Of a stretch of DNA of 35,868 nucleotides, positions 21,001 to 24,000 are shown piece by piece. Position numbers: made by a program. Source of the DNA: a virus (lineage: Duplodnaviria; Heunggongvirae; Uroviricota; Caudoviricetes); IMG/VR virus record IMGVR_UViG_3300029735_000262, positions 1 through 35,868 of that record, one strand, 5' to 3'. The first letter of the stretch is position 1, and every line of letters starts with the position of its first letter.

Positions 21001-24000
21001 TTGGGGTTCGAGGGGGCATTATTAATGTCCTAAATAGTTTCCTCTCTAAAAACTAATTTGTGTTAGGGAAATCATTAAATGAAATGAACCTTTTAGTACC
21101 CACTGTAAAATTCACTTCATTAATATTTAACCAAATACAATGAATGTTCCAAAAGATGCTAATGATATATTTATCAGAGAATCCATACGAGCCTTAATTT
21201 CTGGCGTATCCTCGACCTCAGTACGCCATTGATTGACTGCCTCAATCATATCTCGACAAAACACATCTATTTGCAACTGAAGTTTGCCATTTAAGTGATT
21301 TAAATGCACTTGGCAATTTGGCCTAGGTGGTGGTGTAAAATTAAACTGCATCATTCTTTTCCTGTTCTCTGGATCCTGTCCAGCATGTAAACAAGAACAA
21401 CGATACAGCCAAAAATCATCCGCATAAAATCGACACTGTTCATGTGTACCGGATGTATATTTATTTTCAAGATAACGAGAAACCCAATCTTTATACCATT
21501 TCCCTGTTTCACCCTTACCTATTTTGGGACGTTCAACGCTCCTGCAAATATCAGGCATAGCAAGAGCCATAAACAATGCCGCTAACCAATTCTCACTTTC
21601 AATTGAAGATTCAATTGATTTTATAAACCTTTCCATAACTCACCTTTATATTATTTGATGATTATATTTATAGCACAGTTACAATCATTTTCCGGAAAAT
21701 ATTTATTCATTTTGATATCCTATTTTTAGAATATCCTTTTTATCTCTATTGCATTGCGCTAATGCAGATAACAAACTCGCATTCAGTTCCAGGCTAGCAC
21801 CATATGTCAGTGGACTAGGTACAACTGGAATCGGTGTTTCAGAAGTCAGGCTGGCTGGCAGTGGTACCGCCGGAGTGTTCACGTAAACTGTCCGCGTACT
21901 TCCGCAACCGGTCAGCAGCGGCAGCAGGCACAGGACGTGAAGCACAATCATCATCCGCAACAGCCACTTTGATATCTTCCTGGGTTCTCTGTGACTCCAG
22001 TGCGATCTGCTGTTTTGCATGCTGGTTAGCCTCCAGAACTGTATTGACGATTTGTAGTGATTGCAGGACGTTATTGGTAATGGCTGTTGCTGATTCAGCA
22101 TTTCGTACAGCCTCATCAGCACGTTTCTTTTCGTGCTGATATTTGCTGTAGTAGTGGTTGGCAGACCAGATGAAAGAACCGATGACAGTAAAGAAGAATG
22201 CAGAGATAGCCAGCTTATAGCTCAACTTCATTTACCACCCCACCAGCCTCTTTAAACCGGGAAATCAGGTCACCGATTTTATGTTCATACTGACCGTAAC
22301 CTGCACCAGGTAACGACGCCCAGATATTGCTGCAACGATCGATAGCCTGACGAATATCGCCGCGATCAATCATCGGTAAAGCGCCACGCTCTTTAATCTG
22401 CTGTAATGCAACAGCATCCTGGCTTTTAGGAGAGAAGTCTGTCAGCCCTAACTGCTTGCGGTAAGCATCCCACCAGCGCGAAAGAAGTTGATAACGGCCT
22501 GCAGCTGTTGATTTGAGTTTCGGGTTTAGCGTGACAAGCTTGCGAGGGTGATCGGAGTAATCAGTGAAGAGTTCTCCACCGACAATAACATCATAACCGT
22601 GGTTACGTGTCGGTTGTCGCCCGTTATCCGTTCCTTCTGACCAAGCCACCATATCAAGGAAAGCTTTACGCTGGGAATTTAGTACCTGCATAAATTACTC
22701 CTTAGAGCCACCAAATTTGTTACCGATTACTCGCATTGCAGCCCCACGAATAGCATCGACACCGATCAGCCCCACCCCACCACCAATGGCAACAGATAGT
22801 GATTTAGGCCATCCGACATACTCAAGAGCGGATGCAAAAGTCAGCGTCAGAGCGCCACAGAGTAGAATTTCGAGTGTTTTTCGCTTCCAGCCGCCACCAC
22901 CGCCAAAATAGGCGATACGTAAACCAGCCATAACAATCGACATAATCACTGCGCCCAGCGGTGTGTCTCCACGCCACCAGCTCTGGACCAACTCCAGCCA
23001 GGTATTTGGGTTATGAGGCATTTGTAGTTATCTCTCACCTCGCAATACAGGAGGTGCAAATTGAGGGAACATCATGTACCGCAAATCAGAAGCGGAAACG
23101 TAAAAGAAGTCGAGCCAATGGCTAAGTACCAGATAGACCAAGCCCAACGAATACCAAGGCCTAGAAATGACAAAACCCGCTCGACGGCGGGTTTAAGTTG
23201 TGTGGCGAAGTAACCACTCTTAACACGATACAATAGTTTTTGCGTACGCGTTAGTTTTTTTTTACAATAAGGACACACAGCGAATAAGGGAAAACTATGA
23301 ACTTTTCTAATACCAAAAAAAACAATTTAACAAAGAAATGTCAAGTTAGGGCTTTTAATGTGAACCTTGACGGGAAGGGTAATTTATTTCAGCAAATATC
23401 AACAAATAATAAATTTGTACAGGGTTCCATAATCCAGTTATCAACTAACAGGCATTTAAAATTAAAAGAATTTAGCACTAAAGGTAATATCCATTACTTA
23501 CATTTTTCTTTATACAATCCGAAAGAAGAAGTGTCGATCACCCCAAATAAACCTAACACTAAAGATTTGTTAGATGTTGAAAATTTTGACAATTTACATG
23601 CCTTCTTTATGGTTAAGGATAATCAAATTGCTTCACTCCTTCAAATATCCACTAACTGGAGTGAAGTCAAAATAGCAAAAATCTTCAAATGCTATGGCAT
23701 AGATATTATACCGTCAGCTATCTTAAAGAAAAATGTAATCCAAAAAGTCAAAGATGATGGTTTGCGCGCTGTACATGTGAATTTCAACGTGCATGAATCA
23801 GATTTTGTTAACAAGCCTAGTTTCTTATCTGTGTTTGTAAAAAAAGAGCCAAAATTAAAACAAACAGGAATAAGTGGCCATTTTACTATCGATGCCAGAG
23901 GAAACCCTGCCGTTGCTGCATCAATTGAAAACAATCCGACGCCTTGGATATCTGATTTAAACAGTGACTTTTACTTTGAAACTAAAAAAGGAGAGAAAAT

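Follow-up and report, generated by a model that had tools for sequence, protein, structure and literature searches.

The question raised by this locus is what a small AT-rich gene, lodged between the lysis and packaging genes of a prophage, does for the phage or for the host that carries it. The DNA analysed here (the window, by which we mean the whole 35,868-nt stretch of IMG/VR record IMGVR_UViG_3300029735_000262) derives from an SfV/SfIV/ST64B-like prophage of Escherichia coli. An original prediction, made from the sequence alone, had placed on the late strand of the window a 169-aa open reading frame (ORF) and interpreted it as a Cys/His-rich moron; the ORF is indeed found, intact, at exactly 21127..21636 on the minus strand. 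The present analysis supports well the conclusion that this gene was acquired independently as an accessory cassette (moron), by recombination at the variable site where the lysis genes meet the HNH/terminase genes. The more specific reading that we favor, namely that the gene is a trigger-activated solo HEPN RNase cassette that would protect the lysogen by aborting infection by rival phages, has, as a whole statement, a probability of about 0.5 in our estimate, and the gene is accordingly described below as a candidate for anti-phage defence.

An invariant Rx4H motif and a predicted HEPN fold

The 169-aa ORF is a real gene: its product matches PHROG 18591 (E = 1e-73), and a profile search of 1.84 billion representative proteins recovered matches in many phyla, namely 2,857 clusters (50% identity) at E <= 1e-3, with 1,746 clusters at E <= 1e-10. 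All 115 diverse family members tested match PHROG 18591 as well; this PHROG carries no functional annotation, so that membership in it is uninformative with respect to function. Neither a name nor a function for the family was found in Pfam, NCBIfam, PADLOC 2.0, the PHROGs or the source annotations of the homologues, and a literature search with the RefSeq accession of the 99.8%-identical copy from E. coli 3-72 returned no paper. Most of the family members are stand-alone proteins of 160-200 aa. In a scan of one genome per species, relatives were detected in Proteobacteria, Actinobacteria, Firmicutes, Cyanobacteria, Bacteroidota, Planctomycetota, candidate phyla and one archaeal metagenome-assembled genome (MAG). 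Among the members longer than ~230 aa, just one contains an extra domain, a C-terminal TPR array (P0090, 328 aa) that could have a sensor or partner-binding role; in two others (P0041 and P0088, 324-326 aa), an N-terminal extension of ~140 aa has no Pfam match.

Two residues, R79 and H84, are the only invariant positions of the family, both in the set of 150 diverse representatives (150/150) and among the homologues (115/115). Together they delimit the sequence R79-C-S-C-L-H84, that is, an Rx4H motif, the signature of HEPN RNases, and the earlier statement that the ORF contains no recognizable motif therefore does not hold. The residue that follows R79 is Cys in 142 of the 150 representatives and Asn in the remaining 8, and Asn is the canonical HEPN residue after the Arg (PMC3710099).

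Structure prediction, which had been proposed as a check, was performed and yielded two models with pLDDT values of 85.5 and 92 and an HEPN-like fold, in which a four-helix up-down bundle is present. In the DSSP assignment of the models, the core helices comprise residues 17-35, 72-85 and 123-141, and insert helices (43-61) are located between the first and the second of these; R79 is near the end, and H84 at the C-terminal end, of helix 72-85 (helix 3), whereas D29, a position that is acidic in 149 of the 150 sequences, belongs to helix 17-35. In the published description of the superfamily (Anantharaman et al., 2013, PMC3710099), the HEPN motif is found at the C-terminal end of a helix, an insert separates helices 2 and 3, and helix 2 contains an acidic residue. 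The model matches this description in the location of the motif at the end of helix 72-85 and of the insert at 43-61, and D29 in helix 17-35 would correspond to the acidic residue. The apparent family-specific additions in the model are an N-terminal helix and a three-stranded beta insert (residues 98-122) that precedes the last core helix and includes H111, which is conserved in 143 of the 150 sequences; the HEPN domains of Csx1 likewise bear beta-hairpins. The HEPN matches obtained with the models include Las1, Csx1, HI0074, AF0298, 4nqf, the C-terminal domain of kanamycin nucleotidyltransferase and YutE, and, further down the lists, Csm6, the sacsin HEPN domain, SO_3166, AbiV, AbiA, RnlA/LsoA, Cas13h and HepS. 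The best reading of these models is that the product is a cytoplasmic, single-domain and highly divergent member of the HEPN superfamily and probably a stand-alone HEPN RNase.

The composition of the protein bears on a different interpretation, under which it would be a metal-binding (zinc) or non-catalytic helical protein, for example, a DinB-like metalloenzyme or a nucleic-acid-binding domain, and the Rx4H motif would be coincidental. The 169-aa protein contains 6 Cys (31, 68, 80, 82, 108 and 127) and 4 His (65, 84, 111 and 114), so the original description of it as rich in these residues stands; the metal site suggested along with it is not supported. In the 150 homologues, C31 is replaced by A or V, C80 by N, and C127 by A, V, G, S or T, in each case singly, with the other two Cys kept, and the patterns at C31/C80/C127 (CCA 9, CNC 8, ACC 6, CCV 3) display no co-variation. 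The remaining Cys (C68, C82 and C108) are outside the conserved positions, and position 82 is occupied by Y, F, L or C across the family. An obligate metal center was rejected on the strength of these single replacements by non-ligand residues. The broader interpretation also appears very unlikely: DinB-like proteins do occur among the matches of both models, but HEPN domains are more numerous and rank higher, and one of the only two strictly invariant residues is Arg, a residue that does not coordinate metals. Homology to a lysis accessory protein, the outcome that the original prediction had named as counting against a moron, is not shown by the 169-aa protein.

The variable junction between the lysis and terminase genes

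The features of the locus are listed in Table 1. The late genes were assigned on the basis of Pfam (Q, holin, DUF2570/Rz, HNH and Terminase_4) together with the RefSeq annotation of the 99.8%-identical locus of E. coli 3-72.

Table 1. Coordinates in the window of the 169-aa gene, its candidate signals, the AT-rich island and the surrounding late genes
Feature	Coordinates	Strand or orientation	Basis or remark
CDS (coding sequence) of the 169-aa, 19.8-kDa stand-alone HEPN-like protein, PHROG 18591 member	21127..21636	minus	ATG start, intact
R79-C80-S81-C82-L83-H84 codons, candidate Rx4H RNase motif	21385..21402	minus	read from sequence
Shine-Dalgarno AAAGGTGAG, ends 2 nt before ATG; GGTGA core ends 3 nt before ATG	21639..21647	minus	read from sequence
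TGCTATAAAT, extended -10-like promoter element (TGn + TATAAA), ~30 nt upstream of ATG	21666..21675	minus	exact match
AT-rich cargo island (variable region)	21020..21725	no strand	base after HNH start codon to last Rz1 codons
Rz1 (o-spanin), embedded in Rz; upstream island border, 3' end within island	21703..21954	minus	RefSeq annotation of E. coli 3-72; Rz1 alignment
HNH endonuclease; downstream border, ATG abutted by island	20669..21019	minus	Pfam PF01844, E = 5e-15; empty-site alignment
Q antiterminator	24654-25016	same direction as 169-aa ORF	Pfam
Holin	22695-23021	co-oriented with 169-aa ORF	Pfam
Endolysin	22215-22691	co-oriented with 169-aa ORF	
Rz	21839-22231	co-oriented with 169-aa ORF	Pfam DUF2570
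TerS (small terminase)	20049-20552	co-oriented with 169-aa ORF	
TerL (large terminase)	18319-20052	co-oriented with 169-aa ORF	

The AT-rich island that had been noted at about 21030-21720 is borne out by the measured composition. The GC content of the ~705 bp at 21020-21725 is 0.339; that of the whole window is 0.509, and the flanks reach 0.574 (left) and 0.479 (right). Segments of 706 bp that are equally AT-rich make up the lowest 2% of the sequence and are confined to this island or to a second one at ~23100-24700; a third AT-rich island (~700-2450) dips under 0.40 GC. When aligned with the prophage of E. coli 873.10, in which the site is empty, the island has its left border directly behind the start codon of the HNH gene, and the right border falls in the last few codons of Rz1, which itself remains intact. 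In the alignment of Rz1 proteins (21703-21760 of the window), the core is kept whereas the final ~5-12 residues vary with each cargo state of the junction; the recombination border thus sits within the 3'-terminal part of a lysis gene that is essential. Neither direct nor inverted repeats were found to flank the island, and no Rfam family matched it on either strand, so that nothing points to an insertion of the transposon type.

To survey the junction, a 1.7-kb query was compared with 5,426 complete E. coli genomes. The query was matched at least partly in 1,365 of these, and the island was present in only 19, in each case as a single chromosomal copy with >=98% identity, intact and annotated as a CDS. 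In the 873.10 prophage, the site is empty, with 26 bp separating the HNH and Rz1 genes, and other relatives carry alternative cargo at the same Rz1-HNH junction, namely a GrlR-like gene, two opposite-strand genes, or inserts of several other lengths; all sampled relatives that span both flanks are either empty or occupied by other cargo. The presence/absence polymorphism at this exact junction, which had been put forward as a further check, is thereby seen in related prophages, and the separate acquisition of a moron between the lysis and packaging genes is well supported by the AT-rich island, the empty site, the alternative cargo and the occurrence in 19 of the 5,426 genomes. Under the definition of Hendrix and colleagues, quoted in PMC2629481, a moron is a gene that entered a phage operon through a separate acquisition. 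As with the classical phage morons (PMC2629481), the insertion is evident from related phages and the base composition is unlike that of the backbone, and relatives of the 169-aa gene have promoter-like and terminator-like signals of their own; unlike the classical morons, the copy in the window lacks a detectable terminator, and its promoter is represented only by an extended -10-like element.

The cassette recurs at the same junction across unrelated packaging backgrounds. Besides this prophage, homologues with 41-75% protein identity were found in eight enterobacterial-type phage backgrounds, between the lysis and terminase genes and co-oriented with both. In the window, the packaging genes that follow are HNH and a P27-family TerS; the other backgrounds include Citrobacter prophages with a lambda-type Nu1/GpA terminase, an Escherichia sp. 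prophage with Terminase_2/Terminase_3, a Serratia prophage and a metagenomic prophage with portal_3/Mu_F, a degraded lambda-like element, and Escherichia phage ECP1 (Hendrixvirinae), where the homologous ORF lacks annotation. A separate observation comes from Gifsy-1 of Salmonella LT2 (L103:29482-30406), in which the opposite-strand cargo gene STM2610 is located between Rz and Nu1; its position indicates that the lysis-terminase junction serves as a cargo site in another lambdoid prophage too.

Expression signals and genomic neighbourhoods

The region upstream of the gene is conserved to an extent that the coding sequence is not. The motif TGCTATAA(A/G)T precedes the gene in register in 12 of the 13 enterobacterial-type copies, the proteins of which are just 43-75% identical; in the copy from the window, the extended -10-like element is followed by a perfect TATAAT (21661-21666). 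The ribosome-binding site AAAGGTGA is kept in most of the aligned copies and takes the form AATGGTGA in phage ECP1. In the most divergent pairs, identity reaches 79% over the 45 upstream nt and 59-60% over the coding DNA. Furthermore, in several relatives, a GC-rich hairpin and a T-run come immediately after the stop codon, which is not the case in this copy. Upstream of distant family members, extended -10 motifs are not enriched (11 found vs 9.7 expected), which implies that the promoter-like element is specific to the enterobacterial-type subfamily. Judging by its conservation, the TGCTATAA(A/G)T element is a putative promoter and, given this element together with the ribosome-binding site and the terminator-like hairpins in the relatives, independent expression of the gene is likely.

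These signals bear on the possibility that the product is an HEPN-type RNase with a late lytic function for the phage itself, transcribed with the late operon; possible roles would include degradation of host or competitor RNA, processing of transcripts, and interference with satellites or co-resident prophages. Such a role would be compatible with the co-orientation of the gene with the late genes and with its position between lysis and terminase genes in all nine enterobacterial-type lambdoid contexts examined. Moreover, the window contains no terminator-like site between the gene and either Rz1 or HNH, so that Q-antiterminated late transcription must run through the gene. Nevertheless, we consider a dedicated late function unlikely. 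The conserved promoter-like element and the terminators of the relatives point to independent expression, and most relatives of the prophage lack the gene, which is therefore dispensable for lytic growth. All copies inspected in phage records come from temperate phages, where they occupy typical cargo positions: the Arthrobacter and Gordonia phage copies are located beside the integrase and oriented against the structural and lysis genes, the Acinetobacter phage copy comes directly after the integrase, and the copies in SPbeta-like phages are adjacent to the recombinase/integrase. Many further copies reside in bacterial chromosomes without phage genes nearby.

In both of these actinobacteriophages, Arthrobacter phage Judy (gp34-gp33, L006:3953-5249) and Gordonia phage Bowser (gp32-gp31, L104:2878-4209), the homologue is followed on the same strand, 19-27 nt downstream, by a gene annotated as a lipase, and both genes are located after one another in the interval that separates the tail/lysis genes from the integrase. 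The pair was not seen in other lineages and may be a two-gene cargo module particular to these actinobacteriophages.

A longer upstream module is shared by part of the family. The conserved sequence GCATTCACnGAGTnCCTGTGATAATGCTATAAAT precedes seven homologues (L091:5940-5973, L095:5940-5973, L010:7940-7973 and L011:7938-7971 among others), and in several copies it is preceded by CAG, which creates the inverted repeat CAGGCA-N9-TGCCTG. The first ~40 nt of this module are present in 337 E. coli genomes, where they lie at lysis-terminase junctions before unrelated cargo that in some cases is encoded on the opposite strand; one example is the phi80 region of DH10B (L101:2501-2540). In one locus (L091), the next cargo gene (DUF6979) likewise has a near-copy in front of it. 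The window's own copy retains only the -10 core. The ~40-nt module may represent a shared promoter/operator or a recombination linker for the exchange of cargo.

The neighbourhoods of the gene were surveyed in 74 loci from many phyla (four genes up- and downstream, compared all-against-all with BLAST), with Pfam and PADLOC scans of 149 neighbours. No conserved partner (antitoxin, MNT or sensor) was detected in these 74 loci, where each neighbour family is shared by three loci at most and gaps of >50 bp mostly separate the gene from those on either side. The 25 Pfam families listed as most frequent for the 149 neighbours include no nucleotidyltransferase family. No relationship exists among the small ORFs that precede the enterobacterial copies. 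The neighbours are a mixture, in which housekeeping genes are joined now and then by genes for type I restriction, SspH, PIN, transposases or addiction modules.

These observations are pertinent to yet another scenario, in which the product is a toxin, either of a selfish kind (addiction or conflict) or controlled by an unrecognized RNA or small-peptide antitoxin, that stabilizes the prophage or targets plasmids and other mobile elements rather than phages. Toxin-antitoxin systems commonly use HEPN RNases as toxins (PMC3710099), an RNA-regulated, phage-encoded AbiF system has been described (PMC12373285), and the unusually conserved upstream non-coding region, with its inverted repeat in several copies, is suggestive. 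The lack of a conserved protein partner and of an Rfam match on either strand speaks against this scenario, as does the reduction of the upstream module to its -10 core in the window; in addition, because the module is found before unrelated and even opposite-strand cargo, it is not specific to the 169-aa gene. Altogether, a toxin of this kind seems quite improbable. In particular, the gene differs from HepT of the HEPN-MNT (type VII) toxin-antitoxin systems in that no MNT nucleotidyltransferase is adjacent to it, its neighbours in the window being Rz1 and HNH; in the absence of an MNT partner, it is not an HEPN-MNT toxin. It is further set apart from HepT and from the HEPN domains of AbiV and AbiA by the lack of a Pfam HEPN/Abi match, by the extra N-terminal helix and by the beta insert with the conserved H111.

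A candidate one-gene defence system and its context

Under the favored reading, that of a solo HEPN RNase that aborts infection by rival phages, the gene would be expressed in the lysogen from its own promoter, and its product would act as a pair of chains, whose two R79-x4-H84 motifs together would make up an RNase site that needs no metal. The enzyme would be kept inactive (auto-inhibited) by its own oligomeric state, which appears to be the most likely mode of silencing given that no antitoxin or other partner is conserved. A product of the superinfecting phage would then switch the enzyme on, and cleavage of tRNA or other RNA would abort the infection and protect the lysogen population. 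Promoter activity, expression in the lysogen, dimerization, RNase activity, trigger dependence and the defence role are all inferred, the pairing by analogy with characterized HEPN enzymes. The HEPN enzymes studied so far are dimers that pair two Rx4-6H motifs and are metal-independent (PMC13043305, PMC3710099).

Three prophage-encoded systems are the closest in kind. HepS (HEPN Solo), from the Salmonella prophage Gifsy-1, is a solo HEPN protein that forms an inactive tetramer, is triggered by a tail-tip protein and acts as an anticodon nuclease (Nature 2026, PMC13043305). The 169-aa protein resembles HepS, for which triggering by a tail protein has been shown, in being prophage-encoded, stand-alone and of HEPN type, and differs from it in that the family profile, searched against the PDB sequences, found no homology to HepS; in Gifsy-1 of LT2, no obvious 218-aa HepS candidate is annotated. 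Tha-1 and Tha-2 of Staphylococcus aureus prophages are R-x4-H HEPN RNases that confer Abi-like protection upon triggering by minor tail proteins of incoming phages, and a prophage that encodes Tha must escape self-activation (Nat Microbiol 2024, PMC11087260); the family described here is likewise prophage-encoded and endowed with an R-x4-H motif, and is separate from Tha. The third system, gp57r of mycobacteriophage Butters, is a stand-alone protein with the Rx4H sequence RDRCAH that is constitutively expressed and blocks heterotypic phages, with escape mutations located in minor tail proteins (bioRxiv 10.1101/2023.01.03.522681). It shares with the 169-aa protein the character of a stand-alone prophage Rx4H protein. 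Membership of gp57r in the family was considered and rejected, as neither the family hidden Markov model (run without filters) nor hhalign gave a match.

Several results weigh against the defence reading. No Pfam, NCBIfam or PADLOC model matched the query, so that no curated HEPN family model fits, and when 115 family members were compared with Pfam at E <= 1, the matches were scattered and due to chance, with neither HEPN nor any other family recurring. The family profile matched no PDB sequence, those of HepS, AbiV and HepT included; searches of the PDB sequences with profiles of 17 and 115 sequences yielded chance matches only (a metalloendopeptidase at E = 1.1, a ubiquitin E2 at E ~2), and Foldseek against the PDB gave nothing below E = 1.9. 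The Arg is followed by Cys in 95% of the members, where N, D or H would be usual. With regard to expression, a generic sigma-70/consensus scan called neither a promoter nor a terminator in the island, and the gene is co-oriented with the late operon, so that late transcription alone is possible. Finally, the non-phage neighbours are mostly ordinary genes, with defence genes occasional, and there is thus no clear defence-island signal.

We accordingly describe the gene as a prophage-borne candidate defence gene of the solo HEPN kind, from a previously unclassified HEPN clade. A more inclusive proposal would make it the E. coli member of a stand-alone HEPN family of very large size (2,857 or more clusters at 50% identity, from across bacteria and at least one archaeal MAG) that lacks a curated model and is characterized by an atypical R-C-x3-H motif and a His-bearing beta-hairpin insert. 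This family would function as a one-protein sensor-plus-effector abortive-infection system, and the gene would move as a promoter-gene(-terminator) cassette among the lysis-terminase junctions of unrelated enterobacterial lambdoid phages, possibly via the ~40-nt linker/promoter module. In its entirety, this proposal is tentative and, in our assessment, rather doubtful.

Solo HEPN prophage defence as a kind is no longer surprising. If the proposal is correct, thousands of unnamed proteins of ~170 aa would make up a further single-gene HEPN immune system of the HepS and Tha type, in a family hosted by temperate phages of Proteobacteria, Actinobacteria and Firmicutes as well as by many chromosomes; the lysis-terminase junction would also be documented as a site of cargo exchange common to lambdoid phages with different packaging systems. 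Identification of a trigger would add to the emerging picture of prophage solo HEPN RNases that sense the structural proteins of rival phages. The system is easily testable, being a small single gene with two obvious predicted catalytic residues and a compact putative native promoter. Should the functional prediction fail, the locus would remain a clean example of a moron, of ordinary interest.

The window contains further regions that resemble cargo. The second AT-rich island (23100-24700, GC 0.32-0.35), located between Q and the holin gene, encodes two ORFs on the plus strand, opposite to the late operon: the first (23297-24118) corresponds to a 273-aa protein without a Pfam or PADLOC match, and the second (24143-24625) to a 160-aa hydrophobic, membrane-looking protein with a weak match to DUF4064. 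E. coli 3-72 has two different genes at this site, which looks like another slot for cargo or candidate defence genes. At the beginning of the window (1-2191), a GtrB-like family-2 glycosyltransferase (1-924, PF00535) is followed by an AT-rich ORF of 421 aa (926-2191, GC ~0.37) with no Pfam match, an arrangement that we take to be the expected O-antigen-modifying gtr cluster of SfV-like serotype-converting phages.

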